Shown here: piece after piece, positions 14,088 to 64,000 of the stretch
Layout of the letters: every line of letters starts with the position of its first letter
How positions within the stretch are numbered: position 1 is the stretch's first letter
Source: Diplonema japonicum
Taxonomy: Eukaryota > Protista > Euglenozoa: Diplonemea
NCBI GenBank assembly: GCA_964019335.1
Contig: OZ025650.1
Span: 1 to 64,000, forward strand
Direction: 5' to 3'
DNA: 64,000 bases
Program-made: the position numbers and the translations under genes
Notes under the pieces: generated by a model
The model's database searches: none
What the model was told of the DNA's origin: nothing
What the model saw: only the letters and a program-made list of their open reading frames with translations

Positions 14088-14906
14088 TCACTCAACACCT
14101 GAGAAATCGTTTCTCGTGTTGCGCTTCTGGATCACTTTGAGATATCCCTGGTAACTTGATTTCGTATCGATTGCCTGATTGTCGAGCGTCTTCACAGATT
14201 GCATCTTCTCCAGAAAGTCATCGAGACTAGAGGGGATCCGCAAATCACAAAGAAGAGAACTAAGATAGTCGACGGGGAGGGTGGGTCGGTAGGACTGGAG
14301 AAGTGATCCGTAAGAAGATTCTAGGAAACTGGGGGTAAAAAGGCGTAGAAGCTTTCTGGAAAGGATGGGGGAGGAGGGGAACAGAGCGATGAGGGAAGAG
14401 AGACTCTTTGTTGTCACCGCACGCAGCACAGAGAGGGCATGGCGGAGAGAGGGGTGCTTCAGCGTCTTGCGAGAACATGTAACCAGCTCAGCATCAATAT
14501 CGAAAACTGTCCCTGTGAAGGCCAAGAGAATGATTCTACAAGCGATTATATCAGGGGACCTTCCATGCCCAGGCAGTCCCTTAAGCTTCGCAAGGCACAC
14601 CTTCAGCCCAGCTACGTCGCCATCCTCAACACACATCATGAAATGCAGCGCGTAGCATAGTGCCGCGAACCTGCCCCCCAACCCTTGCACTACCAAATCT
14701 TGCCTGATACTGCGCATCTGCCCCCAGCAGAATCGTCTCCTCTTCTCTCCTTCCAGATTCCTTCGTTTCATTATAACGTGTCTCAATGACTTCATCAACA
14801 TTTTCCGCGGCCTAACCTGCGCCATCTTCGGCAATGACGCTGGCCGGAAGTACTCTTTCTCGAGGCTCTTGCTCGTTCCTTTTTCTTTGATATCTTTTTT
14901 TTTCAT
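14088..14906 (-). CDS. SAC3/GANP/THP3 (LENG8-like) PCI-domain protein
   Basis: LEKEYFR...VRP..L..SL...QMRSIRQDLVVQG is the THP3/LENG8 signature; C-terminal SYRPTLPVDYL. Confidence 0.85.
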   Translation of the reverse strand: MKKKDIKEKGTSKSLEKEYFRPASLPKMAQVRPRKMLMKSLRHVIMKRRNLEGEKRRRFCWGQMRSIRQDLVVQGLGGRFAALCYALHFMMCVEDGDVAGLKVCLAKLKGLPGHGRSPDIIACRIILLAFTGTVFDIDAELVTCSRKTLKHPSLRHALSVLRAVTTKSLSSLIALFPSSPILSRKLLRLFTPSFLESSYGSLLQSYRPTLPVDYLSSLLCDLRIPSSLDDFLEKMQSVKTLDNQAIDTKSSYQGYLKVIQKRNTRNDFSGVE

Positions 14907-15105
14907 TGCTTATGATGATCCCCGGCGTTTCTGCAATAGTATTTTCAAAGCTACACAAGGAAACATTCAAAAAAAAAAGCCACCACACGCCCCCGTCCCC
15001 TTCTCTTGTGTAATAAAGTTAAACCTGTTAAACCCCCCCCCCCCCCCCCCCCCCCTCTCAGTACGATAGCCACCACCTAAAGAAACCCTTGAACCTGCAA
15101 CAAGG

Positions 15106-16218
15106 CTAGTGCTTCCGATGATCAGCGAGGATGTCCCTCGCCAGCATCTTGCAGACGAGGTCGTGGGCCTTTTCTATGAAGAAGTGTCCACCTTCGAAGA
15201 TGCGGAGCTGGGCGGGCTTGGGGTGCGTGGAAGAGAGCCGCCCCCAATTGGCGAGTGAGGACTTCGTGATCTCCCGTTCGCCTTGCCCTCCGTAGCCGTA
15301 GAACACAGTGTCGAGGAGCACCTGTCTGCCACTCTCGAGATCCGCAAGCCACCTGGAAGCATCGTCCTCGTCTTGCTCAGAGAGCTTCGAGTCAGCCCTG
15401 TACAGGGGGATCATCATCTTCATTAAGTCAGGCGATTGGAGCAAAGCGTCAGGCAGACCTCCCACCGACGTGAGCTGGTCGATGATGCCCTTATCGGTAA
15501 GCCTGTCGAGGATGGGGTCGGTGCAAGGAACGAACTTCGGGTTCTGCGAGCACATCACCATCTTGTCCGGCCATGTGCTGTGGTTCTCCTTCAGGTAGCA
15601 CGCTAGCTCCGTCGACAGGTAGCACCCCATCGAGTAACCTAGGAACGCGTAGTCAGGTGCACCCTTAATGGCCGGTAAGATGGCCTCGCTGCACTCTTTC
15701 ACAAAAGTGGGAAGGTGGTCGATGGGTGCCTGGCCCATACGGCGACCGTGGCCTGGGTACTGCACAGCGACCACCTCGATCTGTGGAGGCATAAGGGACT
15801 GCACGTCTTTCACAAAGTCAGCGCTGCCTCCGAGATAGGGAAAGCAGAAAAGACGGATAACAGCTTTAGGTCGGTCACCAAAGGTGAGGATCCACGGGTT
15901 TTTAACGATCTTTTGCATGGTCCGTGAGCCAGGCATGCGTTTTACCTTCTCAAGTTGTGGTGTGGGAATAGCTTGTCTTTCAGCTGCCTTCTTGCGCTGC
16001 TGCACTTTGCTTCTGTACACGTCCCACTCTTCCATTTCCCTTCTCACACTCGCAGGCCTCATGTCTTTCCATAATTTCTCAATCTGCGCTAAGCACTCCT
16101 CATGGCCCATCCCCTTTCCAACAACCCTCCACCCATCCGGTACCTTTCCTCCGTCAAGAGCCTCGCAGTACTGTTCCTCTTCGTTCACTAATATGCAATA
16201 CTTATCCTCATACGGCAT
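15106..16218 (-). CDS. MbtH-like domain fused to a type II (GrsT-like) thioesterase
   Basis: N-terminal LVNEEEQY...VPDGWRVV...EECLAQIEKLWKDMRPASVR matches MbtH. C-terminal LFCFPYLGGSA, VQYPGHGRR, GYSMG, LYRAD and FEGGHFF match TEII. Start may be 16218 or 16248. Confidence 0.9.
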   Translation of the reverse strand: MPYEDKYCILVNEEEQYCEALDGGKVPDGWRVVGKGMGHEECLAQIEKLWKDMRPASVRREMEEWDVYRSKVQQRKKAAERQAIPTPQLEKVKRMPGSRTMQKIVKNPWILTFGDRPKAVIRLFCFPYLGGSADFVKDVQSLMPPQIEVVAVQYPGHGRRMGQAPIDHLPTFVKECSEAILPAIKGAPDYAFLGYSMGCYLSTELACYLKENHSTWPDKMVMCSQNPKFVPCTDPILDRLTDKGIIDQLTSVGGLPDALLQSPDLMKMMIPLYRADSKLSEQDEDDASRWLADLESGRQVLLDTVFYGYGGQGEREITKSSLANWGRLSSTHPKPAQLRIFEGGHFFIEKAHDLVCKMLARDILADHRKH

Positions 16219-16654
16219 ATGTGTGGGTGTAAGAAAGACTGTAAACATCCGTGTTGGGTGGTTACCAATAAGTTAAAAATAAGAGAGAGAGGGAAAATCA
16301 TAAAGATGAGGTAGGAAGTAAAGGAGAAAAAAAAAGGAGGCAATAAAAAAAAGGGATGGAAGATGAAGGAAGGTACTTTAAGAAATAAATAAAACCCCCC
16401 CCCGCGAACCAAAAAAAAAACGAATCAACCCCCCCCCGCAATCCTTTCAGTTCCTTTTCTTGTAAGTTGCACGAAAGAAAAAGAAGCATGAAAAAAAACC
16501 AATTATTTGAGAAGAAAAAAATGCTTTTCTTCAGCCAACCCCCCCCCGGAAACCGTTAGGTAAAAAGAGAAAAAAATCGGTGCACACCGAAAGGGAAAAA
16601 AATAACCAACCCCCCCCAGAAGTGAACCCCTGTCAGTTTTCACCGAATCACTGC

Positions 16655-17974
16655 CTAGTAACGGTAGTGAGCGGGCTTGAAGGGACCCTCCACGGAGACA
16701 CCGATGTACTCAGCCTGCTTGGCGTTAAGCTTGGTGAGCTTGGCACCAAGCTTGTTAAGGTGCGCGGCGGCAACCTTCTCGTCGAGCTCCTTGGGGAGGA
16801 GGAAGACCTCAGTCTGGATACCCTTGGGGTACTTGTCGTTGTCCTTGTTGGTCCAAAGGTCGATCTGCGCAAGCACCTGGTTGGAGAAGGAGTTCGACAT
16901 CACGAACGAAGGGTGGCCGGTGGCGCAACCAAGGTTCACAAGCCTGCCCTCAGCAAGAAGGATGATGTGCCTGCCGCTGGGCATGGTGTACCTGTCCACC
17001 TGGGGCTTCACCTCGATCTTCTCCTTGCAGTTCTCGTTCAACCAGGCGACCTGGATCTCAGTGTCGAAGTGCCCGATGTTGCACACGATGGCGTCGTTCA
17101 TCATCTTGGGGAAGTGCTCCTTGGTGATGATGTCGTCGTTGCCGGTGGTCGTCACGAAGATGTGGCACTCCTCAACAACGTCCTCCATGAGCACCACCTG
17201 GTACCCCTCCATGAGCGCCTGCAGGGCGTTGATGGGGTCGATCTCGGTCACCATGACACGCGCACCGAAGTTGCGGAGGGCGGCGGCGCACCCCTTACCA
17301 ACGTCACCGTACCCCGCAACGACGCAGGTCTTACCGGCGATCATGACGTCAGTGGCACGCTTGATCCCGTCGACAAGGGACTCACGGCAGCCGTACAGGT
17401 TGTCGAACTTGGACTTGGTGACGGAGTCGTTCACGTTGATACCAGGGAAGGGGAGGGTCTTGTTCTTGCACCTCTTGAAGAGGGCCTTCACACCGGTGGT
17501 GGTCTCCTCGGAGACACCCACGATGCCCTTCACAAGGTCGTTGTCGAAGCCCTTGGAGAGCACAAGGTTGGTCAGGTCACCACCGTCGTCAAGGAGGATG
17601 TTGGGGTACCCGTTGCCGGAGAAGCCCTTGATGGTCTGCTCCACGCACCAGTTGTACTCGTCCTCGGTCTCACCCTTCCATGCGAAGGTGGGGATCCCGG
17701 CCTTGGCCATGGCGGCGGCGGCGTGGTCCTGGGTGGAGAAGATGTTGCACGACGACCACCTCACCTCAGCACCGAGGGCCTTGAGGGTCTCCATGAGCAC
17801 GGCAGTCTGGATGGTCATGTGGAGGCACCCAGCCACCTTGGCACCAGCAAGGGGCTTCTTCTCACCGTACTCCTCACGGAGCTCCATGAGACCAGGCATC
17901 TCGTTCTCAGCAAGCTCGATCTCCTTGCGCCCGAACTCAGCGAGCGAGATGTCCTTAACCTTGTAGTCAGTCAT
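16655..17974 (-). CDS. AHCY: S-adenosylhomocysteine hydrolase
   Basis: [43 protein letters not shown] and [13 protein letters not shown]. The [10 protein letters not shown] segment resembles the trypanosomatid enzyme. Strong codon bias. Confidence 0.98.
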
Positions 17975-18853: not shown

Positions 18854-20056
18854 TCAGTTCGTGCAGAATGAGCTTACCCATTCCACCCCGGAGGACCCAG
18901 GGGTGTCTTTTTGGCAGTTCCCTGACACCTGATATTGAGGAATGTTCAGTCCTGTGCAATCATTGCTGAGGATGAAGGTGTTGTACGTCATTCCAAAATT
19001 CGTGCAGTTGTTGATGTACAAGGAACCGCCGCCTGCAGATTGGAGGCAAGTGTTTTGTGGGAAAGTATACGGGGTGCAAGACCCGCAAGTGGAGTTTGTA
19101 CAGATTTTTTGAGTGAATGACCCAGACGGCGGTGGCGACGGTGTTGGGGGCGGTGTACCACCGACAATAGACGTAGCAGGCCAGTCTGCAATCAAACACA
19201 GATTATCTCCCCTCAATATTCGTATATATCCACCCTCCCCCCACCCAACTCCCCACGAATTCTTCACAATCCACGCGTTCTTCGTAAAACCAACCACCAA
19301 TGCTGAATGGTTCTCCTCCACGCCTACGCATTCTACCAAAACGCCAGAAATGTAATTCTGCCAAGTTGTGGCATCAACACCAACTGATAAAGGCCCGTTC
19401 TGTGATATCCATTGTGCCATGGAATCTTCATAAGGTTGGGTTGAAGAGTACCCTGAGATCAATGCTCCAGGGCGTAGCCCTGAAAGGTCACATGAAGTTT
19501 CTTGGCCTATGTAAGGGAAGGAATTCTCTGTGCCGATAACACCTCCATGGGTCTCGAGAAGCCATTTCCATGTGGCAATGGTATCACCACCGCTGCATGT
19601 TCCTGTTGAACATGACACCAGCTCCTGTTCAGACAAGGAAGTGAGGTTTTTGCCGGACAGGAACCATTGTCCTTCAATGCTGCCTGTTGCTGCAAAGGCG
19701 TAAGATGCCAAGCAGCCTTCTTGGTTTTTCACGCGGGTTACGGCACCATAGGCTCGCCAGTCGATCGGTTGTGGAGGCTGGGTGTTTGTAGGTGCTTGTT
19801 TTAATGAGGTGCGTTCTCTCTTCCCCCTCCCCTTTGATAGGTATTGTGTTCTGAACTCGTCTCTTGTCAAATCGGACAGCAAGCCCCCCAAGCTCCCCTT
19901 TTCCTTTATCATTCGCAAATTAGTCTCCCATATGCCCCTTCGCTTCTCGTCTTCTGCGTCGCTGCTATACTGTTTATGATACTTTGCTTTGTACCCCTCC
20001 CAGTCGGTCGCCCCCACCATGCTGACCAACAATGCTAGCGTTGTTGTTAATTTCAT
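18854..20056 (-). CDS. Secreted papain-family (C1A) cathepsin L/cruzipain-like protein with catalytic Cys->Ser (silicatein-type motif) and a Cys-rich C-terminal extension
   Basis: Signal peptide, I29-like propeptide, DWRAYGAVTRVKNQ, QEGCLASYAF in place of QGxCGSCWAF, LSEQELVSC, NHSALVVG, WIVKNSWG. A poly-Pro hinge precedes FTQKIC..C..C...C. Confidence 0.92.
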   Translation of the reverse strand: MKLTTTLALLVSMVGATDWEGYKAKYHKQYSSDAEDEKRRGIWETNLRMIKEKGSLGGLLSDLTRDEFRTQYLSKGRGKRERTSLKQAPTNTQPPQPIDWRAYGAVTRVKNQEGCLASYAFAATGSIEGQWFLSGKNLTSLSEQELVSCSTGTCSGGDTIATWKWLLETHGGVIGTENSFPYIGQETSCDLSGLRPGALISGYSSTQPYEDSMAQWISQNGPLSVGVDATTWQNYISGVLVECVGVEENHSALVVGFTKNAWIVKNSWGVGWGEGGYIRILRGDNLCLIADWPATSIVGGTPPPTPSPPPSGSFTQKICTNSTCGSCTPYTFPQNTCLQSAGGGSLYINNCTNFGMTYNTFILSNDCTGLNIPQYQVSGNCQKDTPGSSGVEWVSSFCTN

Positions 20057-26428: not shown

Positions 26429-29400
26429 CTAAAGCGCAGGCTCGTCGTACTCAAAATCTTGCATTTCCTGCTCCGGCTGCCCTTGTCTACCCTGAACATG
26501 CCCTTGACCACCCTGTTCACCCTGAGCATGCCCTGGTTGCATATGCTGTGGCTGCACAAATGCAGGTTGCTGATAAGGCTCTGTTACAGGTGGGGCATCT
26601 TCTTCACTGTCCCTCTGAGCACGCTCGGAAATACGGATGAAGACTTGTTCTAAAGAAGTCTCATTGATGCTGTACTCTGTTATTCCTATGTGTCTGTTGG
26701 TCTCGATAGTCCTGAAGACGGAGGCTAGCGATGCGGTGATGGGGAGCTTGTAGGTCAGCCTGAGGTTCGTGGCCTCCTCCAGCATGGAGTCGGGGTACGT
26801 TGTCACCATGAAGGATCTGACAGCTGCGTCTGCTGCAGGGTCACGCACCCTCAGTTCCAGCTCGTACGCATCACCGAATTTCGATTTCAATTGCTGCAGT
26901 GACCCAATGCACTGCAGCCGTCCGTCCACCATGATCGTGACTCGGTGCTGCAGATGCGACAGCCCCTCCACCTCCTCCAAGTGGTGCGTCGTCAGCACCA
27001 CGCACCTGTCCTTGCAAGCATCCTCCAACGCCCTCCACAACCCCCTCCTGGCCACAGGGTCCATCCCGGCGCTCGGCTCATCTAGGAAGATCACCGGGGG
27101 CCCTCCTATCAAGGCGATCGCCACTGACAATTTCCTCTTGTTCCCCCCCGACAGCGACTTTGCCTTCTTCTTCCTATGGTCCTGAAGGTCAAGCGAGTGG
27201 ATTAACGTTTCAATACTCTCCTTAGCATGCTCCGTTGGGACGCCCCGCAGCCTGCAGTACAGCCACAGATGCTCGTCGGGTGTCAGGTGGTCGAGCAGCG
27301 CATCGAACTGCGGGCAGAAGCCCAGACTCTTCCGCACGTTTTCCAGCTCCGTTGCGATGTCGTAGCCCCTGCCTGTCTCTGGGTTGTGCCCAATCAGCGC
27401 AGTGCCTGATGTGGGCGGAAACTCCCCTGAGAGCACGGACAAGGTAGTTGTCTTCCCTGCCCCGTTGGTGCCCAGAAAGGCGAAGAGCTCTCCTTTTTTG
27501 ACTCCAAACGACAGGTCGTGAACAGCGACCTTCGTGGGCCATGCCTTGCGCAGGTGCTGCACGGTGATGAGGTCACCGTCTCTGCCAGCTTCCACTTCTT
27601 GTCTTTCTTGCATCACAGCACTGTCCTCAACGGCCTCCTGCGCTCCCTGGTTCTGGCGTTGCTCTTTGGTGAAGCGCAGCTTTGCGCGGTACGTAGGCCA
27701 CATTTCGAGAAGGTACGTGATGAGCATGCACAGTGGGATCGAGAGGGCCATGAAGGTGAGGTCGCGACCAACAACCTTCCAGGAGAGGGGTGCGGACTTG
27801 TCGGAGCCCGTCACCTTGAGGAGTGTGAGTGAAGACAGCTGGATGAGACCTTCGCCGAGGCAGAAGGAAGGGACGATACGGTAGAAGTACTGCAGAACAA
27901 AGTTGATGTCGTGGGTGGACTCGATGAGGTCCATGATGAAGGAGGTCACAACGAGGATGAAACCGGTGATGAAGTTGGCGATCGACACAACGCTCTGCGC
28001 CGTGGTGTGTGTGGTGAAGAGGAAGGACACAGCATAGCTGTTGATGACGCTGGAGATGCCGTACATCAAGAACAGCAGGATAGTAGCGGTGGCCGTCTCA
28101 AAGTCTCCAATGAACTCCTTTCTACCGTCGATCGCGAAGAGCAACAACACAATAACCCTAGAGTGAATAGGTATGGGTGAATAGGATTACATACAACGTG
28201 ACTGAGTAGGCGCATATGTCAAAAGCAAATGACGAAAGCCAATACGACGTTACCTTCACACCTGACACCAGCTGCACGTGCTTCGCCTGTGGAATGGCGT
28301 AATGTCTATTAATGACTTATTATTCATACCTTGCTCTCTCTCTCCTTCACAATGAATGAAACGTAGTTGGAGGGCAATAGCGTAAACGGGAGGAGGATTA
28401 CCAGGGATGTTATTAGCACCTGATATGACTTGATAAGGTCCTGAAGGTAGTCAGAGAACGGAAGGGGGTGGTTCCTCGCTTTGACATAGGCAGCATCACC
28501 ACTCTTCTGTCGCAGGATGGCGTTGTGGTACATGTTCAGCGCTGCAGGCATGGAGGCAACCCATGTTGCGTTCGTAAGCAGTGTTGTTGTCTCGTAAGGT
28601 ATGTCCTGCCGTGGTTGTGCATCGAGCGTTGGAAAGGTGTCGCCCCCCGCCATCGCCACCACACGGTCCTCGCTGTGCCCGAAATAATTGTCAAGCAGCC
28701 ATTCTGACAGATGGGCCGAGTTCACGCTCACATTGTCCATCGTGTACTGCTCTGAAGGGAAGGCGCAAACCCCGCTCCCCAAGCACCCCCTGAACAGCTC
28801 GGACCCGTCATCCGCAATCGGCATTTTGAACGGCGTCCCGAACTGCTCCACTCCGAGTTCGATAGAAGGGAACTCCGGCAGCGGTATCCTCCCCATCAGC
28901 AACGCAATGCCAATAAAGAACACGGGCAGACCGAACTGGAAGCACAACGTCCTTTTGTCCCTCTTCGCCGAATGCGCCCTCTTCAGCACTAGAGCTTTGA
29001 ACTGTGACACAGCCAAGTCCGTCCCCGTCACAGGCTCTGATTCCGGGTCCGTGATGCTATACAGCTTGAAATTCTCGTTTCCTTTGCCTACGATATTGCG
29101 GTCAGTGGGGACATGCGCGTCTCCCAGGGCGATTTTCATGAAAACCTCTTCAAGTGTCGTGACGCCCACACCGTAGCTCTCGACCTTGATCTCGCTTTTA
29201 TTTGTGTCGATGTTTTCGAACAGGTTGGGGAAGAACTGCTGGGCCCTACAGGTTGTGAGCACCCCCTCCAGGTGCCGCCTGTCCTCCGGATCGACGGTGA
29301 CGTTCGTGATGAATGTGGCGACGAGCTCGGCACGCTCCTCAACCTGAGAAACAAGCAGCTTGCTCTTCATATCAGTGGACAGCTCTGTCTGGTCCACCAC

Positions 29401-32109
29401 CTCGTCGGTGATAGGCATGTATGAGGGGAGCTGCATTTTGAGTTCGTTCCCGCTGCTTGACAGAAACCTTGCGTTCGGAACGTGAGACCTGACAAGCTGC
29501 TCCACCTTCTCCACATTGCACCCTGCCTGCATGGCGAGGGACAAGTTGTACCCGACACCAAGCTTCTGCTTCAAGAAGAACGGCGACCCTCTGGAGTGCA
29601 AGCGCCCGTTCTCCATGATCATGACAGAATCACCCAGCAAGTCAGCCTCGTCCATGTAGTGTGTGGTCAGCACGATGCAGCGTTCCCTTAGGATCTCTGG
29701 CCTGCGAAGAAGGTGCCACATGGCACGTCTGGACTCCACATCCATCCCGGCCGTGGGTTCGTCGAGGAACACCAGCCTCGGACCGCCAATGAGAGCGATG
29801 GCCACAGAAAGCTTCCTCTTCTGTCCACCGGATAGCGTGCATGAATGCGCATCTTTCTTGCTCCCCAAGTTGATAAGATCAAGCATCTGGTCTACCAAAA
29901 CCTTCAACTTGTCCGTTGGAACGCCCTTAAGCCCGCCGAAGAACATCAGATGCTCCCTGCAAGTGAGATCTGCCCACAAGATATTGTGCTGCGGGCAGAG
30001 CCCAAGATCCTCACGGATCACATCCATGTCGCACAGGATGGACTTGCCCCAGATGCGGCAGTCGCCAGTGTCAGGTTCCAGCATGCCTGTTAGCATGTTA
30101 ATCAGAGTCGTCTTTCCAGCGCCATTGTGCCCCAAAATGCACTGGATCTGCCCTTCATAGAATGACAGTGAGTTGTCAGGAAGCCCCATCCCCAGGTGGT
30201 TCACGGCAGGCACAGGCTTGTTTGGGAATTTCTTTGTAATATCCGTAATGCGGATACGCTCGTGCTGCTGCATCCTCGACGCTGTTTCTTCGTCGTAGCT
30301 CTCGACCACAGGGGGATCAGGGGGCACGTCGCCTACGGAGGAACGCACCACGGGCGTGCTGGACCAGTAAGACCGTTGGAAGAGGAAGAGAGGGTGCCTT
30401 TTGACACCCCATTCAGAGGGCAGCACGTTGTCTAGGTACCAGGCTAGGACGAGGTACAGCAAGGTATCGAAGAGCATCATGAAGATGCAGAGAGCAAAGG
30501 AGTAGCTATCGGAGGTAAACTGGCTCAATCCAGCACCGATGCCCGCGCCTTCATAGTCGCACAGGAGCGAGGCACCATACCCAAAGGCAGAAGGCGACAG
30601 GAGCGAGAGCCATGTTTTGGACGCAACGGAGATCTCATCGTTGATGACGGAGCGGGGGATGGTGGTGAGCATCATGATGAGCGGCGACACAAGGGATGCA
30701 ATGCGCGCCTTCGAGAAGAAGACTGAGATGAGAAGTGAGAGAGCGATGATGGATTCTGAGAAGGACCAGAACAGCAGGAACACCACGAGCGGTGACGAGT
30801 TCTGGAACATGTTCTTCCTGGTGATGCCCACGATAAACAGTGACGACAGTGACTGCAAGATGGTGTAGGTGAGGAACCACGAGGCGTAGAAAGATGGCCG
30901 CGAGAGGCCCATGATAAGCATCCCCTCCCGCTGGCGCTCTTCTTTTTCTAACACAACGGAGCTGACAAGCTTCGACACTGGGTAGATGTACGCAAAGGAT
31001 AAAAACAAAGGCAGAATCTGCTTGGCCCGCATGTAAAACTCGGATTCCTTGTACTGTGCAGTGGGCATGGGGCAGGTCACAACAGGAGTGACGTAAGTTT
31101 CGTTGAGGAGTGCACTTGTGAGGATGGATTGGAGGGTAGTGAATCCCGACAATTGGTATTTCTGGAAAGGTTTCTCACCGAGGCCCTGGGCGAAGCGTTG
31201 ATGGGGACGGCGTGTGCTTGGTGTGGAGGAGTAGTTCATACGTATGGTGAAGTCGTACTGGTTGGCGTCGTCATCCGCTTGAGTGAGTGCGATGACGGCC
31301 CATGTCGTTTCAGCACCGTCACCTTGGGCGTAGCGAACGGCACGGTGCTCATCGGGCCATACACCGTGGCATGTTGTGTCTGTCAGGGTGTCGGCTATAC
31401 TTGCGTTGTACACAGTGTCGAAGAGCATTGTGTGTGAACGCATGTAGCTGATCACATTCTGCACTGCCGAGCACGGGACTGCATCAGAACGTGAGAACTC
31501 GAGGTTCCCAGAGTGCTCCAACGACGCGACGTCAAACTTTTGAGCGAAGCTGTAGTCCACACTCTTCTGCAACACCACCATGCTGTCAAAATTAGTCACA
31601 TCAACCGGGGCCGTTAGATTTATACTCGGAGGAGATGAACCTAGCTTCAGTCTGACCTGCGCCTGCCACTTTTCCCCGGGAGGCGGACGGATATCAGCTA
31701 AAACAGGCCCCGAGGAGCATTCTGTAAAGCCTACCGGATTGTTTGCATGGGGTGGGAGGCCGGAGACGCATGCGATCTTGTCCTTTACGAAAGATGTAGT
31801 GTTGACTAAAGGGTTGTTCATATAGTCTCCAGGGGGTCTTGTGTACAGGTTGGCTGCGAGGTACCCAGAGACAACCATCAAGACAAAAAGCGGGGGGAGG
31901 AACACCTCGCAGCAGCACCCGCACGGCTTTCTCCGCTTCAGTTTCATGTTCTTGTCGATTGTCAGCTTCAAGTGACTCAACGTCCTGTGCTTCTGCTCAT
32001 ATCTCCGTAAATCTATGCTCCCCGCCGCTGCCGTCTGCTTAGTACGGGTGTCATTTTCGTCAAAGTCTGCGAGGAGCATACCAAGCTCCTCATCGTGATT
32101 GTTGCTCAT
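26429..32109 (-). CDS. ABCA-subfamily full ABC transporter; 2 introns (28287-28329, 28158-28194)
   Basis: Two NBDs (GHNGAGKTT/LSGGQKRKL/LDEPT and GTNGAGKTT/LSGGNKRKL/LDEPS). The 43- and 37-nt introns join the two track ORFs through KERESK|AKHVQLVSGV...YW...D, the ABCA consensus. Confidence 0.95.
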
Positions 32110-54171: not shown

Positions 54172-54859
54172 CTACTCTTCTTTGAGTTCGGGTTCCGCCT
54201 TTTTGAATGGCGTCGTCAAAAGGACCCAAAGTGCTTGCAAGATCAGAAACACGAACGAGTAGATCTTCTGAAAGAAGGAGAGGGAGGGGTCAGTCAACGA
54301 CGAGATAGCTGAGCCGGCCTTCTCATAAGAGGAAGGGGAGTAGTTGTTGAGCTGTTCCTTGGCGGTGGTGAGGGTGGGCGCCACGTGGGTCTTCGAGAGG
54401 TCAGCGACGGTGCTCTGCACGTCGTCCTTCCACTTGAGGAGCTTTGAGGTTACCTTTTCGTTGTGAGTCCCGAACTTTTGGCTTGCAGATGTGAACTGTT
54501 CACGGGATTTGTTTAGCACGGTCTCCACCCACTCCTTCTGCTCAGGAGTGGTTGATTCCTCATAGTAGGTTTTCGCCTTGATTAGCAGCTCTCTCAGCAC
54601 AGCCTCACATTTCGTGATCAGTTCCTGCACCCTCCCCTTCGCTGTCGTCAATGCCACCTTCGATTCCTCAAACTTTTCTCCGCCCTCCTTGCGCGCCTGC
54701 TCCACCAGCTCCGACAGTCTCACCAGCATGCCCTCAAGTTGCTGTTTTTTTCTTCTTCTTTTTTTCTCCTTTATAAAATTTACATACCACCTGAATCTCC
54801 ACAAGTGCTTTCTTGGCACTCTCCCCACCCTCTTGATACGACTTCTGAAGAGTATCCAT
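54172..54859 (-). CDS. Helical membrane-anchored family, paralog A; 1 intron (54742-54787)
   Basis: Spliced start MDTLQKSYQEGGESAKKALVEIQV|QLEG; amphipathic helices; C-terminal hydrophobic segment KIYSFVFLILQALWVLLTTPF. Confidence 0.8.
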
Positions 54860-55357
54860 TTTTATTTTTTGTTGTGTATAAAGAGATCTTCTTCATGTAA
54901 GAAAATTGTCTTCTTTGGTTTATAGTGAGGGAAATAACAAGAAAGTGAGTGTAGTTTTGATTGTCATCAAGTGTAAAAAGAAAGGGGGAATTAAAACGCG
55001 CTTTCGGCCGTGCGTACGCTGTTTCAAGTGAAAGGGTAATGGTCAAGCTTCTTATTCTTTTTACTTTTTTTCTTTTGAAACTTTTCGGAAAAGAAAAAAA
55101 AGAAATTCGAGCAAAAGAAACGTGACGTCTCTTACTTAGCTGCTTCAAAAGAAAAAGGGTGATGAGCTATTTATCTTTTTTGACCTCAGGGGTGGTGGTC
55201 ACCGTATTAAATTCTTCTTCGCCAGTAACTGTATTATAAAATAGAATTTGGGGGATGAATAAATAATTATGGGGCCACAGTAAGGGGTTGCTGCCTTCAT
55301 TGTCGAAACAAGCGGCAAATGTTAATGTTGGGCCACTTTCTTTTCATAGATTCTTAA

Positions 55358-56017
55358 TTAATGCAAAACAGGCAAACCAAGCCTCCCCGTGTTGCGCACA
55401 GTAGTGACAAAAAGGAGGCACAAGGCCTGTAAAATAAAGGTTACAAAGGTGATAATACGCTGGGGGTAGGAGAGGGAGGAGTCGAAAAGAGCTATGAATG
55501 CTGAATCAGCCTTCTCATAAGAGGAAGGGGAGTAGTGGTTGAGCTGCTCCTTGGCGGTGCAGAGCTGTTCCTTGGCGGTGGTGAGGGTGGGCTCCACGTG
55601 GGTCTTCGAGAGGTCTGCAACGGTGCTCTGCACAGTTGTAGTCCATTTTGCGAGCATCACAGCCACCTCGTCCGCCTTCTTCGCAACCTGGCCGGCGGTG
55701 TGCTTCCCGTTCTTCCCGAGGTCGCCTGTCGCCTCCCTCAGCCGCTCTGCTACCTTCTCAACAGTGTCGCGAAGGTTCTCCACGTGCTTCCGGACCTGCG
55801 ACCTCTTCTCCTCCGGGATGTGGTTCTCGTAGTACATCTTCACCTTCTCCTGCAGCTCACCGAGCACAGCCTCGACCTGTGACATCAGATCTTGTACTCT
55901 GCCCCCCGCAGTCGTGAGGGGCGACAGCCTCCCAGCGTACTTCCCTTCTCCTTCCTTGTGCAGCTGCTCAACCAGGACGGCTAACATCCCCAACGAAGGT
56001 GCGAAATCGTGCTGCAT
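55358..56017 (-). CDS. Helical membrane-anchored family, paralog B (5' end uncertain)
   Basis: 219-aa ORF; 55443-55888 reads identical to 61125-61570. Confidence 0.7.
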   Translation of the reverse strand: MQHDFAPSLGMLAVLVEQLHKEGEGKYAGRLSPLTTAGGRVQDLMSQVEAVLGELQEKVKMYYENHIPEEKRSQVRKHVENLRDTVEKVAERLREATGDLGKNGKHTAGQVAKKADEVAVMLAKWTTTVQSTVADLSKTHVEPTLTTAKEQLCTAKEQLNHYSPSSYEKADSAFIALFDSSLSYPQRIITFVTFILQALCLLFVTTVRNTGRLGLPVLH

Positions 56018-57152
56018 GTGGATTGATGATTGCTGAGGTGAGATGCTAGCTGCGGTACAGTAATAGTTGGAAGGGGGGGAAAAAAAATAGAGGGGCGAAA
56101 AGAAAAAAAAAAAGAATTAATAAAAAGAAACGATAAAAAATCCCCTCCCGCTTCTTCGACACCCGGTCCGAGCCTGTGGTTGTGGGTGGTTTTCTATAAA
56201 AAAAAATTATCCCCCCTTTTTTATTTAAAAATTTAGAATCAATAATATAAAAGAAAAGAAAAAAAACGAAAAAAAAAATAAGGTCAAACATTAAAAAAAA
56301 AAAGAAAGAATGAGAAACCTTTTGAATAGCAGGCCTCCCCCCTGTTCTTCGTTACCTAAAAGAAAGCATGCTAACAGAGGTTTTCTCGAAAAAAGAAAAT
56401 GGAAAAATAATTACAACACTCCTTCTTGCGTGTGCCTCGGTAGTGATGAAAGATGAAAGGAAGAGAAATAAATGGAAGAAAAAAAAAAGAAGATTTTAGC
56501 AGAGGAGAAATCAAGAATGGCCGTCTCTTTATTTGTGACTCATTTAGAGGAGCAGGGATAGCGATCGTTCTTATTCTTTTTCCCTCCATAATTTCCCATC
56601 CCTCAAATAAGGCAGTTCTTACACAGCATCTTCTTTATCCTCCCCCGCATATAAAAAAAAATAAAAGGGCGAGCGGGAAGTGGGGAAGGAAGAATAAAAA
56701 AGAGGGGGGGTAAACTTAGTTTGTTATTTATTTCTTCATTCATTTCTTTCGCCCCCCCCCCCCCTTCCCCTCTTTTTTCTCTCTTTTTGAGCGGGTTTTT
56801 TCGTTTTTTTTTCCTCTTTTTTTTTTTTTTCTGTTTTCTTGCTTTCATTTTTTTTTTCTTTTTCTTCTAGACTTTGTCTTTTGGCTTCGATCTGCGGAGC
56901 TTTGAGACACAAAAAACAAAAAAAAAAAAAATAATAACCAACCATGACGGAGAAAATGATAGCGTGCCTTGTCTCCTCTATTCGTCGAAGAATGGTACCT
57001 GTAGAAAAAGCAACAAACCCTTAGAGAAAAAGAAAAGAATCATAAGTAATCACCACATATTTATGGGAGGGGGATTAAGCCGTTCCTAGGTAATTCAGGA
57101 AGGATACCCCCCTCCTCCCCCCTTCCCTGTCCTCATTTCTTTTCGTTCTTTT

Positions 57153-57194
<42 letters not shown>

Positions 57195-57246
57195 ACTATT
57201 TAAGGGTGCCTGCAGTATGTGGCAGGGCGCCCTGCACAAGTATCGT

Positions 57247-57520
57247 CTACTTGATTACAGGGGGCGCGCCTCGGCCTAGTTGTAGCTTCTTCTGCGTTCC
57301 GCGTCGTGTCCTTAATGCGTGCGGTGTGCAACTCAACCCCAGCCATGGTGCCCCTGGTAACCAAGATTCTGAGCCCGTGCAGTTTGCTGCCTGTTCGTCA
57401 CCCTGAGCATCTGCGATACGTTCTTCCACTCGGGCGCTACCGACGAGGAGGTCAACAGCGAACAACACATCTGATGTGCTTCTTTATATTTCCATATTTC
57501 TGTGTTATCCCCACCACCAA
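57247..57520 (-). repeat. ~245-nt GC-rich dispersed element, copy 1 (no intact SL)
   Basis: Aligns to 59590-59841 with 14 substitutions, two 3-nt indels, one 1-nt indel and a 15-nt insertion (manual count). Confidence 0.9.
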
Positions 57521-59589
57521 AAAAAAATAGCATTCACAGCTCCCCCCCCACTCTTCTTGAAAGAAATTCAGGGGGCAAAAAAAAATATGAAAATTGTGCT
57601 TTATGCTCAGCAGTGCCCTGATCTGTTGGAAGGGAGGTGTTTTTTTTTCTTTTTTTCTTTAAACTTGTAATGATCAGATATTTAAAAATTCAGAGGGAGG
57701 GGGATGGGACGTACTCACCTTTCCTTGCAGGGGGGGGGGGGGGGATCCCCCCCCCTCCCCCCCAACTAGCTTCTGTTCTTGTCAAGAAGAAAAAAAGGAG
57801 GGGGGGGGGAAAAAAAGAAACCCCAAAAAGATCCCGGTGTTGGTGAGCTGCAGAACCAAACAAAAAGAGTGTGTGAAGAAAAAACCAGACTTTCTTTTCC
57901 CTTTTTCGGTGTGCTTGTTGGTGCCCACCAATTTCTTTTTTTTTTTCTTTCTGGAGCAAAATATCAAGAAAGGGAAGATTTCAAATCACCTGTGCTGCGG
58001 TCCTTGCGCAAGTAACAAAAAAAAAAAAAAAGATTACGGGAATCACAATCAAACCAGTGGATCAGCTCAAAGGCGGTTGCTTGAACACCACAAGCCTCCC
58101 TCCTCGGTGGCCAGTAGTACCGATTTCTTGTGAATTCAGCATAAAAAAACCACCCCTTTTCTTTCGAAAAAAAAAAAAAAGAATCTTCCCACCAGAAGGG
58201 TCACAGGGAAATGCCGCTTTTCTTTCCTCTTTTTTCTTTTTTCTTTTTTTTTTTTAAACTCTTCATAACCGTGTTCTTTTGGCTGCACAAAAGAAAAAAA
58301 AATGTAACCTTTTCTTTTAAAAACCTCATTTCTCTCCCCAGTTTCACAGGGAAATTTCGAAAATCCAAAAAGCTAGTTTGGACAAAATAAAAATGCACCA
58401 AAAGAAATGTTCTCTTGGTCGATTGTCTCCTCTCCTTTTTTTTTGCACAGCCATTCGATATGAAGCGTGGGGGAAAAAAAAATGAAAAAGAACAGGAAAA
58501 GAAAAGGACACAAGAGAATGTAAAGAATAAGGAGGAAGGAGGAAGGGGAGAAAACAAAACTAAAAAAAGGGGGGGGGGGCAGACAAGGACTAAAAGTTAT
58601 TTTTCTTTTCTTTTTTTTTTTTTTAAACAGGCGCCCGTCCAACGCAACACATGACAACAACAATACACGAGAAAGAAAACCGTCGTGTGTTTTTTTTTTT
58701 TTTTAAATGGTGTCTTTTCTTGTTATGCTGCTCAAGGAACGCGTCTTGATTTTCTTTTCCTTTGCCTGCAGAAAAAAAGGGAAGGGAGGCTATTAAATGA
58801 ATAGCGCAAAAAAAAAAAAAAAAAGGCGTGCTTCATGATTAAGTAGATAACCCCCCACGTAGGGAGGGGAGCTGCGCCGTATGGACACCCTTCGCAGCTA
58901 AAAAATATTAATCCCCCCCTTTTTTTTGAAAAAAATCTGAAAAAAAAAAAAAAAAAAAAAAACACAAAACGCGCAACACAAAATGAAGAAATGAAAAATA
59001 CAAAAAAAAGCAAGCAAAAAAAAAAAATAATAATAAGAGGAACCGGAAACGTGTTGCCATATATATAACGGTTCACGAAACACCTGCAAGAGGATTCTAA
59101 CCCACAACACTATCAAGACGTTCCCTTTTCTTTTTTTTTTTTTTTTTTTGTTTAGACAAGTCATAGACTTGTTTTTACAAAACCCCCCTCCCAATACCGA
59201 AAAATTGTAAAATTCAGGTCATTTCTCCGTTATTTGAGTTATTGAGATAGTAAACAAAGCACTCTCAAGGATCTCAGGGCTCGGGGATAACGGAGGGCTG
59301 AGACTATATAGAAAATTACAAAAAAGAATGAGCGGAGAAATATAATAAAAAAAAAGAAAAAAAAAAGACAGAGAGGAGATACCACTAAATATTGAGAATT
59401 CATACCATATTCTTTTAACAAGCCTTCTTTTTTTTTTTATATTTTCATTTTCTTATAACCCAGAAAAGAAATGCTATCAATTCTACGCAATATCGTGTAG
59501 TAGAGGAGGAAGAACAAAAAAAAAGTTATAAAATGGGGCTTTGATTGCAACACTAGGTGGCGTTAAGCGTGCAATGAAGCACGAACTAC

Positions 59590-59838
59590 CTACTTGATTA
59601 CAGGGGGCGCTCCTCGGCCGAGCAGTAGCTTCTTCTGCGTTCCGCGTCGTGTCCTTAATGCGTGCGGTGTGCTCAACCCTAGCCGGGGCGTCCCGGGTAA
59701 CCAAGATTCTGCGCTCGTGCAGTTTGCTGCCTGTTCGTCACCCTGAGCATCTGCGTTACGTTCTTCCACTCGGGCGCTACCGAGGAGGTCAACAGCGAAC
59801 AACACATCTGATGTACTTCTTATATTTCCATCCACCAC
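59590..59838 (-). repeat. ~245-nt GC-rich dispersed element, copy 2, directly 3' of an SL exon
   Basis: Homologous to 57247-57520; begins GTGGTGGATGGAAATATAAG immediately after the SL 3' end. Confidence 0.9.
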
Positions 59839-59876
59839 CAATAAAGTACAGAAACTGTAGCTTTAGAATCGTTGGT
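59839..59876 (-). other. Diplonemid-type spliced-leader (mini-exon) sequence, 38 nt, isolated genomic copy
   Basis: The minus strand reads ACCAACGATTCTAAAGCTACAGTTTCTGTACTTTATTG. The 3' part CAGTTTCTGTACTTTATTG is the conserved kinetoplastid/diplonemid SL end; the 5' part matches the recalled Diplonema SL AACCAACGATTTAAAAGCTA at all but 2 positions, with nt 1 missing. Confidence 0.9.
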
Positions 59877-60242
59877 ATAAAATAAAATGAGAGAAATACG
59901 AGGGCAGTTATGACAAAAAAAAAATGAGGAGCTAATTTTTTTCTTTTTTTTTTCTTTTCTTTGTTTCAATTATAACATTTTGTATTTCTTTTTTTTTTTT
60001 CTTCTTTTTTTTCTTTCAAGTTATTTTTTTTCTTGTTCGTTTTCTTTTCTTTTTTTTTTTTTGTAAATGTGCCCGGGAAAAATAAAGGAAAGGGAACAAG
60101 GGGTGGATGGTGGGGAAAAAATCGTCCATTCGTGCCGTGGGTTCTGCGAGAGAACATATTTCTGAAGCTACCAATGACCTTCCATTTTTTTCCCCCCCAG
60201 AGGGAGAGAGGAAGAGGGGAGAGGAGAGGCATGTTGAAAGGC

Positions 60243-60285
<43 letters not shown>

Positions 60286-60499
60286 CCTTTCGCATATACG
60301 CCAACGGCAGGGCAGCGCACCAATCAACATGCTATTAAAAAAATAAAATTAAGGGGGGCCGATAAAATATCCAAAAACACAAGCAGTTCACAGGGTAGTA
60401 AATGTGGGCCGCTTCTTTCATAGATTTTAAAGGCCCTTGACCCTAGACACACACCACACGCAACATGACAAATAAAGAAGAAAGAAAAAGGTAAGAAAC

Positions 60500-61775
60500 T
60501 TAGTTCCTGTTTTGCTGCTTCCTGTGTGACCTCTTGGTGTGAGTAGGCTTCACTGGTGCGGAAGTGATGTCTGACAACACATTCGTCGCCTTCTTGACGT
60601 TCTCCTTGTTGAGGTCGATGGAGCCGTTGATGGGCTCGGGGGTCTCCCTTGCAGGGCTGGGTGTCACAGGCTCAGGGGTCTCCTTGATGGGACTCGGCAT
60701 AGGCAGCTCTGTAACAGGCTCAGGGGTAGCCTCAACAACAGGTTCGGGGGTGGCCTCAACAGGCTCGGGAGTAGCAACAACAGGCTCAGGGGTAGCCTCA
60801 ACAACAGGCTCAGGGGTGGCTTCAACAGGCTCGGGGGTGGCCTCAACAACAGGCTTAGGGGTAGCCTCTGCGGGTTCGGGAGCAGCAACAACAGGCTCAG
60901 GGGTGGCCTCAACAACATGCTCAGGAGCAGCAAGAGGTTCAGGAGTAGCCTCAACAGCAGGCTCAGCTTTAACAGGTGTGGGAGTGACAGGAGCTTCAGC
61001 CTTGGGGGAAGGAGCGGCAGCTTCCGGAGTGGCAGGAGTCGTTTTCACGGCACTGCTCTTCTCCGCCTTCTTTCCTTCCCAGACAGCAGTGAACAGGACG
61101 TAGAGGGCCTCAATAAAGAGAGCGACAAAGGTGATAATACGCTGGGGGTAGGAGAGGGAGGAGTCGAAAAGAGCTATGAATGCTGAATCAGCCTTCTCAT
61201 AAGAGGAAGGGGAGTAGTGGTTGAGCTGCTCCTTGGCGGTGCAGAGCTGTTCCTTGGCGGTGGTGAGGGTGGGCTCCACGTGGGTCTTCGAGAGGTCTGC
61301 AACGGTGCTCTGCACAGTTGTAGTCCATTTTGCGAGCATCACAGCCACCTCGTCCGCCTTCTTCGCAACCTGGCCGGCGGTGTGCTTCCCGTTCTTCCCG
61401 AGGTCGCCTGTCGCCTCCCTCAGCCGCTCTGCTACCTTCTCAACAGTGTCGCGAAGGTTCTCCACGTGCTTCCGGACCTGCGACCTCTTCTCCTCCGGGA
61501 TGTGGTTCTCGTAGTACATCTTCACCTTCTCCTGCAGCTCACCGAGCACAGCCTCGACCTGTGACATCAGTTCCCCCTTCGCCGTGGTGATCGTCGTCAT
61601 GGCCCCCGTGTACTTCTCCTGTCCTTCCTTGTGCACCTCCTTTGCGAACTCCGTGATCTTCTTCGCAAAAGCGTCGATATCCTGTTGTGTTGTGGTGTGT
61701 TGCTGAATGTGTACTGCATACCGCCAGAATCTGCTCAGTAGCTTTGTGCGCCTTCTCAGTCATCGCGGTTTGCAT
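60500..61775 (-). CDS. Helical membrane-anchored family, paralog C, with Pro/Glu/Thr repeat tail; 1 intron (61682-61721)
   Basis: Spliced start MQTAMTEKAHKATEQILA|DIDAF, with the intron at an equivalent position to paralog A. The hydrophobic segment is followed by (V)VEATPEP repeats. Confidence 0.85.
60630..60960 (-). repeat. Coding minisatellite of 21/24-bp units encoding (V)VEATPEP
   Basis: About ten near-tandem ggctc(a/g)ggggt(a/g)gcctcaacaac units on the + strand. Confidence 0.9.
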
Positions 61776-62333
61776 CGTAAGAGTGATAGCGTTTAATAGT
61801 AATGGCCTGGTGGTGGTGGTGCACACTGTTGTCACAATGGAAAAAGGAATCTATGTTATTGGTAAGAAGTTAAAACAAAACGGGCAGGCTAGCAGTGGTC
61901 CGGAAACGGGACTAAAAGAGCGGTTGTGCAAGGGATCCCCTACAAAACAAAGTGAATCAAGGGGGGGAGGGGGGGGATTGAATGCCTCTGGAAAATATCA
62001 GCCAGCTTCCTTGAAGGCACAACCGAACAGGCGATTCTTTTTTTCTTTTCTCATAGTAAAGATACTGGTTTTCTTTTCTTTGTGAAGAGGAGTTGAAAGA
62101 GAAGAGAGAGAGACAAGACAAGGAATATACGCTCGCGAAAAAAAAAAGCAATAAAAAAACAAAAAAAAATAAAAAGAGAAAAGATTCGAACAGAGTTACT
62201 AAAGTCTGTTCTTTATGACCACATACAAAATAATAATAATAAAGAATGCCGCAAACTTATTTGGTTTCTACCTAATAAAGTAAACCGGGTTTTTTCTTTT
62301 TTCTTTTTTTTTTTGGAGGACAAAGAAAAAGTT

Positions 62334-63026
62334 TCATTCAGTTTTTTTCGGGTCCTTCTCCTTCTTGCTTTTCCAAAAAGGGGAAATGAGGAGGAGGAAA
62401 AAGGCCTGTATGACATAAAGGAATGCGATTATAATGCGTTGTGTGACGGGCTTCTGCTGGTCCTGAAGGGAACCAAGTGCTGAACCGAGTTTTGTGGAAG
62501 TATTCGGGGCGATGTTGTCGAGGCTGCCCTTCAGGGCGGTTTTTGCCTCGCGAAGCTGAGGCACGGTTTCAATGGCGGAGTTGATGTTGCCAATGTAATG
62601 GCAGAGGGATTCCTGCATTTCCTCAGATCTCTCTGCCATCCACGTACCCATTTCCTCAAGGTGTGCATCGGCAAAGATCTTAGCCGCATTCTCCTTGACC
62701 TCCGCTACAACCTTCTCAACTTCCTTTCTTTTCTTTTCTCCCACATTCCCCACGTACTGTTCTTTCGCTCTAATCATAATCTCTCCACTCAGCCTTTGGT
62801 ATTCCTTCATCAGTTCTGCCACTCTGCCGTTCTCCTGCATTATCACCTCAGGCGATGTGTCCTGCCCACCCTCTCGCATGTCCTCGACCAACCTCCCCAT
62901 CTCAGCTGCAACTTGCCTCAACCCCTCCTTTGCCCCTTCCATCTCTGTCTCAAACGTGTCCTTCATGAACTGATTCGTCGCATTCTTTGCCGTTTCCTTC
63001 ACGAGCTGCACGGAGGCTTGCTGCAT
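62334..63026 (-). CDS. Helical membrane-anchored family, paralog D (most diverged, intronless)
   Basis: Same layout as paralogs A-C; ends QRIIIAFLYVIQAFFLLLISPFWK, compared with QRIITFVTFILQALCLLF. Confidence 0.8.
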   Translation of the reverse strand: MQQASVQLVKETAKNATNQFMKDTFETEMEGAKEGLRQVAAEMGRLVEDMREGGQDTSPEVIMQENGRVAELMKEYQRLSGEIMIRAKEQYVGNVGEKKRKEVEKVVAEVKENAAKIFADAHLEEMGTWMAERSEEMQESLCHYIGNINSAIETVPQLREAKTALKGSLDNIAPNTSTKLGSALGSLQDQQKPVTQRIIIAFLYVIQAFFLLLISPFWKSKKEKDPKKTE

Positions 63027-63115
63027 CTTTTTTCTTTTTTAAATCTCTTTTTTAATTTTTTATGGAACGAATACTTTTTCTGTCAATTCAATAAACCCAC
63101 TCTTTTGACCTGACT

Positions 63116-64000
63116 TCACACCTTCTCAAAGGAGCTGAAGTCCACCCCACCTGGGATCTTCCTCGACCGCGATGCAATGGCATCCTGTACCCTCTTGTCG
63201 CGCTCCTGGTTGTTGAGGTCCTGATTGTTGCGATTAAACTCCTTCCTGCGCTGCGCCTGCAGATTGTACGGCTCGATCCTATCGCGGCTGGTGGTACGGA
63301 CCTGCGGGGAATCGGGGGTGAGGGTCACGGGGTCCACCTTACCGGTGTGCAGGTGGTCCCTTTTTCCCTTGACCTGTCGGAGGGTCGGGCGGGAACCTTT
63401 TTTGAATTGCCTTTCTGCCGCCTGTTTGAAGTCCATCAGCACTTCGTACGAAGGGTGCCCGCAGGATAGCGCGTAAGCATCGGCCTTCTCCTTGGACCCC
63501 AGCCCTATGGCGTGTGCCTTCTCGCACTGCAGCACATCGTGGTACACCGACCCGCAGATGGGGCAATTCGTTTCGGGGTCAACGCCACGCCGCCTTCTGG
63601 AGCACGCTGCTTGTTCGTGTTCAGTGCTGCTGCAGATCACGCAGTACTGTTCTATGCCCGCCAGCTGCTGCATCGACTTGTTGAATTTCGTTTGCGTTGA
63701 GTCGGAGTTGAGCTCCGGGCACACATCCACCGTGTGCGACTCTGACAAGCAGTGCAGGCACGAACGCTGCTGCTTCTCATGCAGCCTTGTCTTCGCTTCG
63801 CGCTTCTGCACGCTATGCACACGGTGTGCGCCCGTCACCACCACCCTGCTGAGATAGTCAATACTCCTGTCCACAAGACCCCCCTCCAAGTAGGTTGTGA
63901 AACTAGGAGGCCTGGGTGCTGAGACCATAATGTAACTCCACTCCAGACCCTTCTTGTCTTCGTCGGACCCGTAGCACAAATCCCAGTTGGCCTTAACAGC
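63116..64000 (-). CDS. Protein with three CCHC zinc knuckles; 5' end outside the window
   Basis: CLHCLSESHTVDVC, CVICSSTEHEQAAC and CPICGSVYHDVLQC (CX2CX4HX4C); frame open to the window edge. Confidence 0.8.
   Translation of the reverse strand, partial: AVKANWDLCYGSDEDKKGLEWSYIMVSAPRPPSFTTYLEGGLVDRSIDYLSRVVVTGAHRVHSVQKREAKTRLHEKQQRSCLHCLSESHTVDVCPELNSDSTQTKFNKSMQQLAGIEQYCVICSSTEHEQAACSRRRRGVDPETNCPICGSVYHDVLQCEKAHAIGLGSKEKADAYALSCGHPSYEVLMDFKQAAERQFKKGSRPTLRQVKGKRDHLHTGKVDPVTLTPDSPQVRTTSRDRIEPYNLQAQRRKEFNRNNQDLNNQERDKRVQDAIASRSRKIPGGVDFSSFEKV

Follow-up and report, generated by a model that had tools for sequence, protein, structure and literature searches.

A trans-spliced MbtH-thioesterase II fusion gene in Diplonema japonicum and its relatives in other euglenozoans

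Diplonema japonicum encodes a protein in which an MbtH-like domain is joined to a type II thioesterase (TEII), and this fusion is a real, host-encoded, trans-spliced euglenozoan gene. It lies in a stretch of 64,000 nucleotides (contig OZ025650.1, positions 1 to 64,000), referred to here as the window, and its features are collected in Table 1. A previous sequence-only reading had described one MbtH-thioesterase II open reading frame at this place, and both domains of the translated frame were indeed found above their Pfam cut-offs. As to function, we give somewhat better than even credence to a self-docking editor, which would sit on an NRPS-type enzyme with its gene elsewhere in the genome and clear that enzyme's carrier arm of acyl or aminoacyl groups by hydrolysis.

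Table 1. Features of the fusion gene and its nearest neighbours, in window coordinates
Feature	Position	Strand	Basis and remarks
MbtH-TEII fusion CDS (P0001)	15106..16218	-	Open frame, 370 aa, by translation
MbtH-like domain, residues 5-62	16033..16206	-	PF03621; W30 and W50 kept; Ala20 at the S-x-W tryptophan
CEAL motif, residues 18-21, replacing SxWP	16156..16167	-	Sequence; CQAR is the like change in Flectonema
Linker, residues 63-100	15919..16032	-	Predicted charged helix 63-76, then low-confidence stretch
Type II thioesterase domain, residues about 105-365	15124..15906	-	PF00975; likeness to RifR, RedJ and BorB
Ser196, predicted nucleophile, GYSMG	15631..15633	-	Invariant in 9/9 family rows
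Glu314, predicted triad acid	15277..15279	-	Glu in 9/9 family rows
His345, predicted catalytic base, GGHFF	15184..15186	-	Invariant in 9/9 family rows
AG trans-splice acceptor	16239..16240	-	Spliced leader joined here in X6, X7 and X12
Pyrimidine-rich tract, approximate bounds	16270..16358	-	Upstream of the acceptor; read from sequence
S-adenosylhomocysteine hydrolase (SAHH), upstream neighbour	16655..17974	-	Pfam; context only
SAC3/GANP (THP3-like) protein, downstream neighbour	14088..14906	-	PF03399; context only

The N-terminus scored as MbtH, as had been proposed, with a Pfam match (PF03621) at residues 5-47 of 42.2 bits (E 5e-11) against a cut-off of 27. The best PDB sequence match for residues 1-66 was PA2412 (E 9e-13; about 42% over 59 residues), and the predicted domain was superposed on the PA2412 structure 2PST with an rmsd of 1.0 Å over 59 columns and a TM of 0.90 by target, while another structural comparison gave Z 10.0 and rmsd 1.5 for 61 aligned residues. 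With PA2412 as the reference, the predicted fold was that of an MbtH-like protein (MLP), a small β-sheet packed by a helix. The VPxGW and WxDMRPxS motifs, said to be retained, were found as VPDGW (26-30) and WKDMRPAS (50-57). In the AlphaFold model, built from 8 sequences with a mean pLDDT of 63, the two domains were joined by the helix 63-76 and the stretch 79-100, the latter having a pLDDT under 50. Other searches added little: the NCBIfam scan of the fusion protein gave nothing above a cut-off, the ESM Atlas led from the whole protein to bacterial TEII clusters and from residues 1-100 to nothing usable, and the homolog search with residues 1-66, which returned one candidate and no matches, missed known relatives too and was hence uninformative.

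The thioesterase domain was matched by Pfam (PF00975) at residues 122-360 with 95.5 bits against a cut-off of 26.4. Among solved structures it was matched by sequence to RifR (E 4.5e-23), RedJ, BorB, and human thioesterase 2; when its model was compared by structure, RifR again ranked first (VIA-align: Z 13.0, rmsd 3.4, 181 aligned), and RedJ and ClbQ were among the closest solved structures. The complete TEII with its GYSMG nucleophile and GGHFF histidine thus stands as first read, S196 and H345 being conserved throughout the family. The triad acid sets the family apart, since the column holding its Glu contained Asp in 154 of 156 other TE domains. The 370-residue protein had no carrier or synthetase domain and its transcript spanned the fusion gene alone. 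With the PF00975 match, the predicted Ser-acid-His triad and the separation from a synthetase, the domain is classed as a TEII.

Relatives of the whole protein were found in other euglenozoans. The homolog search gave 11 matches among 1925 candidates, and 7 of these were full or near-full at 47-65% identity. Named fusion homologs came from Flectonema neradi, Namystynia karyoxenos, and Sulcionema specki, which are diplonemids, and from Papus ankaliazontas, an early kinetoplastid; the claim of a fusion in a eukaryote is thereby extended to orthologs in four named euglenozoans. No match named as Paradiplonema papillatum, Euglena, Bodo, or a trypanosomatid was among the 11, and these groups may or may not be represented in the protein set searched. 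Within the diplonemids the TE domains were 68-73% identical, against 56-58% to the kinetoplastid-side copies and about 21-30% to other TEs, and the segment QNPK..CTDP was nearly invariant in the family.

The most unusual part of the MbtH domain is the sequence QY-CEAL (C18-L21) in place of the usual QY-SxWP, equivalent to the substitutions S18C and W20A. The reported replacement of SxWP is present, but it is lineage-specific: S-x-W was kept in five of the seven family members with an intact N-terminus and lost only in the window copy (CEA) and in Flectonema (CQA). Among bacterial MbtH loci from GTDB, S-x-W was kept in 77 of 80, a Pseudomonas-rich set taken from about 9400 loci. The three-tryptophan signature of MLPs is accordingly incomplete in the window copy, where W30 and W50 are joined by Ala20, and complete in most orthologs. 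In the available text of PMC10510592, the MLP pocket consists of two tryptophans, and mutation of both abolishes activation by PacJ. In the window lineage, docking is probably weaker or differently tuned now that one of the pocket tryptophans is gone.

Despite this loss, the MbtH part is still conserved. Between the window copy and Flectonema the MbtH part was 64% and the TE 71% identical, but the linker 28%, and over all relatives the MbtH part was 40-64% identical and the linker 8-34%. N12, W30, W50, and DMRP were invariant in the family MbtH domains. Among 10 strain differences in the fusion gene, a small number, 9 were at third positions and silent when taken singly, and one codon with two strain changes altered its residue; only 2 changes, again few, fell in the MbtH part, and both were silent. 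These comparisons support the view that the MbtH part is not evolving neutrally.

The interaction with an adenylation domain was modelled with E. coli EntF (440-960) as a stand-in partner. Residues 1-66, co-folded with it without an alignment, reached 0.85, whereas the best of three controls was 0.00; the runs agreed in 100% of contacts, and the pLDDT of the partner was at least 84. For comparison, 51 of 78 solved pairs come up to this mark, as do 2 of 108 mismatched ones. In the predicted complex, EntF residue 826 touches L10, N12, C18, and W30. Complexes of EntF with MLPs have been solved (5JA1/5JA2, in the available text of PMC10510592), so the co-fold speaks for likeness and for an interface left unbroken by the substitution rather than for binding by the window copy.

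Candidates for the partner were sought in the window and in published tables. As stated in the sequence-only reading, no NRPS lies in the window: no adenylation, condensation, carrier, or PPTase gene was found among the scanned ORFs of the 64 kb. Three orthogroups are annotated as NRPS in the part of the PMC10161547 supplement that was covered (OG0012259, OG0024071, and OG0026566), where the Lys2-type OG0000166 is also placed among the diplonemid expansions. OG0012259, with two members in Sulcionema, one in Rhynchopus, two in Hemistasia, one in PhM-4, and none in the others according to the same material, was the NRPS orthogroup with hosts overlapping those of the fusion. Since no orthogroup named for MbtH or thioesterase has its profile, this orthogroup may in fact consist of the fusion proteins, labelled after their best match; moreover, bacterial-looking entries in the covered part of the PMC10161547 table mean that its NRPS rows could stem from contamination. 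For the Paradiplonema proteome, the covered part of the PMC12697944 supplement lists Lys2, PKS-like proteins, and a 'tyrocidine synthase 3', and hybrid NRPS-PKS products, the euglenatides, are described for Euglena in the available text of PMC11703798 and PMC13683363. Adenylation and carrier enzymes are therefore expected in the group.

In the self-docking editor that we favour, the MbtH domain would clamp the adenylation core of the NRPS-type enzyme, the roughly 40-residue linker would give the TEII access to the carrier arm, and the TEII would strip wrong acyl or aminoacyl groups, with the editing of mis-primed carriers as its main job. Because eukaryotic genomes scatter pathway genes, such a fusion would hold helper and editor at 1:1 and aim the editor at the right enzyme. 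Precedents for an MLP guiding a fused enzyme are LtxB (MbtH-P450) and ObiF1, in the available text of PMC10510592. The missing S-x-W tryptophan of the window copy and the lack of an NRPS in the window count against the docking model.

Two other readings of function, both unlikely, have to be weighed against the self-docking editor. In the first, the docking is the same and the TE, instead of proofreading in general, performs one dedicated release or transfer step, for example on a product or on a modified amino acid or acyl chain bound to the carrier. The high conservation of the TE, with its QNPK..CTDP segment and family Glu, suggests one fixed substrate, but it also fits recognition of a conserved carrier domain. 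RedJ and ClbQ, close in structure to the TE, have dedicated release or transfer roles, whereas RifR, its top match by sequence and by VIA-align, is a type II thioesterase with an editing role. In the second, to which we attach a similarly low probability, the MbtH part of the window lineage would have given up binding to adenylation domains and would persist as an appendage with a structural or regulatory role, and the TE would serve FAS, PKS, or an acyl-CoA pool in the manner of animal thioesterase 2. Such a loss of docking would account for the equivalents of S18C and W20A in the window copy and Flectonema, and it would suit the close match to human thioesterase 2, the stand-alone sister TEs without MbtH described below, the FAS I candidates reported for diplonemids in the available text of PMC7052976, and the Paradiplonema PKS-like proteins. 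It is opposed by the excess of MbtH over linker identity to Flectonema, the invariance of N12, W30, W50, and DMRP, the silence of both MbtH strain differences, the full motif in five of seven relatives, and the single-sequence co-fold that reached the mark with EntF, with the reservation that a like complex is already solved.

The gene and its transcript were examined in contigs of several sequencing runs. Contigs of runs X6, X7, and X11 ran through the CDS with no gap; there is thus no intron in it, in agreement with the sequence-only reading. Upstream of the start, loose contig ends from two studies (X6 and X7 in one, X12 in the other) stopped at 16239 or just short of it, and the extra letters on these ends, once reverse-complemented, gave the euglenozoan spliced leader at its 3' end, as compared with the table in the available text of PMC3795323. 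These runs carry no RNA label on record, so the transcript evidence is the leader sequence itself, which was joined at the AG in both studies, as expected for the SL-capped mRNA proposed as a check. The gene-derived 5' UTR is 20 bases long (16219-16238), and the in-frame ATG at 16248, being upstream of the trans-splice site, lies outside the mRNA, which leaves 16218 as the start. One 222-base piece of the gene in the metatranscriptome run X13 was left out.

The surroundings of the gene were also of eukaryotic type. The flanking genes, named previously as THP3-like and SAHH, were assigned by Pfam to SAC3/GANP and SAHH on the same strand, and all long Pfam-bearing genes of the window were on the minus strand and of eukaryotic type. 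The GC3 of the fusion gene was 0.68, within the range of 0.53-0.86 of its neighbours. Linkage to the neighbours was borne out on the SAHH side, where a contig of run X1 (15066-16724) joined the fusion gene to the 3' end of SAHH with no differences, although X1 may itself be the source of the window. On the SAC3 side, the contigs of X1 and X4 both broke at a poly-C run (about 15021-15065), so that this link is seen in the window alone. Bacterial contamination, mis-assembly, or an artefact joining two bacterial genes, which might be suggested by the almost exclusively bacterial relatives of both domains and by the frequency of mbtH-TEII pairs in bacteria, is refuted by the trans-spliced contigs of two studies and the orthologs in four named euglenozoans with a tree that tracks the hosts, together with the gap-free coverage, the SAHH link, and the GC3, and we consider it vanishingly improbable; the sequence-only reading had called contamination unlikely.

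Several observations were made on other genes of the window. The contig depth of SAHH was several-fold above its flanks in X1 and X4, and its contigs differed from the window copy at fixed sites and carried other flanking sequences at 17975/17978 and 16652, so SAHH is probably multi-copy. Two consecutive ORFs, 28324-32109 and 26429-28066, make up an ABCA-type transporter (26429-32109), and the break between them suggests an intron or a frameshift. The papain-family cysteine protease at 18854-20056 has an I29 propeptide and is extended by DUF3586, and several minus-strand ORFs with apolipoprotein-like helical matches below Pfam cut-offs at 54172-63928 are perhaps a tandem gene family.

In phylogenetic trees the family held together in both domains. 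The nine family rows of the TE domain formed one group in an IQ-TREE analysis (99/99), in which the six diplonemid-side rows grouped at 99/100 and the window copy with Flectonema and P0006 at 98/98, for 34 rows hand-chosen from 165 and with a bootstrap that was not fully settled; FastTree with all 165 TE rows gave the nine-row group a support of 0.999. In the MbtH-domain tree of 65 columns, the seven family domains grouped at 99/98 with a long-branch outsider, P0024, inside. The branching order of the TE clade agrees with the host tree. From these trees we infer a single fusion before the split of diplonemids and kinetoplastids, followed by vertical descent; both domains would be of bacterial origin, and no donor lineage was resolved in either the MbtH or the TE tree. 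P0014 and P0015, both stand-alone and devoid of MbtH, were the nearest relatives of the TE clade (100/100); P0014 belongs to a eukaryote collection, and in P0015 the catalytic Ser and His are missing (GYGMG). Since these relatives have no MbtH, the TE may not have come in the operon of the MbtH. In two metagenome homologs of the kinetoplastid side (L002:1435-2572 and L003:1238-2710), the next gene on the same strand encoded a beta-lactamase-family protein (PF00144). Some beta-lactamase-fold proteins act as NRPS cyclases; the neighbourhood may be chance.

Bacterial genomes offer the two parts as a gene pair. At the GTDB loci described above (80 of about 9400, Pseudomonas-rich), a TEII was the next gene downstream of mbtH in 14 of 80, the next upstream in 1, and fused in none; 3 loci were too short to judge, and 14 of 80 does not stand for bacteria at large. 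A plasmid search gave 16 records with one place covering at least 80% of the fusion protein, and the three NRPS clusters opened, from Nostoc NIES-3756, Janthinobacterium lividum, and Methylomagnum ishizawai, all had mbtH followed by a separate TE gene. The order of the domains in the fusion is thus that of a gene pair common in bacterial operons.

The architecture is not restricted to eukaryotes. In a profile search over 1.84 billion representatives, with fetched proteins checked by the MbtH profile, at least two other fusions were found among the best 150 of 15,570 profile matches, 28 of which were scanned with Pfam: P0025 (MbtH-TEII) and P0024 (TEII-MbtH). P0024 and P0025 are likely independent fusions, because their TE domains fall outside the euglenozoan clade. 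P0024, in which the order is reversed, lies on an NCBI contig of 5 kb; its MbtH reads QYGLA and has no S-x-W tryptophan either, which may be a case of convergent loss in fused MLPs. Of longer MbtH-bearing proteins there were 4254 matches, and almost all of the best 120 carried two MbtH domains in tandem; in the tandem set P0172-P0288 (120-260 aa), two profile matches were present in 119 of the 119 counted, and one protein, P0263, had a phage tail-collar domain too. An MbtH motif in L007 was rejected as a false pattern match inside a PKS tail.

A wider proposal can also be made, which we hold only tentatively, at somewhat less than an even chance. The family would be a native eukaryotic MbtH family: an ancestor shared by diplonemids and kinetoplastids would have acquired a bacterial MLP-dependent pathway and fused both accessories into a self-targeting editor, several lineages would still run the pathway to an undescribed conserved nonribosomal metabolite, and the tryptophan loss would be matched in the partner adenylation domain. 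The fusion would then be a marker for that metabolite. Conserved and expressed in diplonemids and in an early kinetoplastid, such an MLP would bring MLP-dependent chemistry to eukaryotes and would point to a small-molecule pathway not yet described in very abundant marine protists. The fusion is also its own bait: a pull-down with its MbtH part is expected to bring the synthetase along. The fusion further offers a natural test of whether an MLP can be the address tag of a trans-acting enzyme, as proposed for LtxB, and, because close orthologs exist with and without it, of the weight of the first pocket tryptophan.

MLPs are generally regarded as bacterial, and fungal NRPS systems seem to be wholly without them according to the available text of PMC8788816. 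The literature searched, mostly non-subscription, yielded neither a eukaryotic MbtH nor a stand-alone MbtH-TEII protein, and the term 'MbtH' did not occur in the covered supplement text of the diplonemid papers or in the main text of one preprint. With PA2412 of the pyoverdine pathway (2PST; with EntF in 5JA2), the MbtH part of the fusion has sequence, predicted fold, and the VPxGW and WxDMRP motifs in common, and the co-fold, with the reservation given above, places it on an adenylation domain. Unlike such MLPs, the fusion is eukaryotic, trans-spliced, and joined to an enzyme, and it lacks a surrounding NRPS cluster and, in the window copy, the S-x-W tryptophan.

The TE part shares the alpha/beta-hydrolase fold, GxSxG and GGHF motifs, and separation from the synthetase with RifR (3FLA/3FLB), RedJ, BorB, ClbQ, YbtT, and human thioesterase 2 (4XJV); it differs from these TEIIs in having its own MbtH, Glu instead of Asp as the triad acid, and GYSMG instead of the commoner GHSMG, and the fusion TEs form a long-branch clade of their own. 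LtxB (MbtH-P450, lyngbyatoxin), SlgN1 (MLP-A), and ObiF1 (C-A-PCP-TE-MLP) likewise have an MLP tethered through a linker to a further domain, and LtxB has been proposed to bring a trans-acting enzyme to the adenylation domain, according to the available text of PMC10510592. No stand-alone MLP-TEII protein appears in the fusion section of that paper, where those three proteins are all bacterial and the TE of ObiF1 is type I and inside the synthetase. The bacterial mbtH-TEII pairs, such as those of Nostoc, Janthinobacterium, and Methylomagnum, bring together both functions, mostly in the order seen in the fusion, but as separate genes in all 14 adjacent GTDB cases and the three plasmids. The euglenozoan fusion is thus made of known parts in an undescribed combination and in an unexpected host group.
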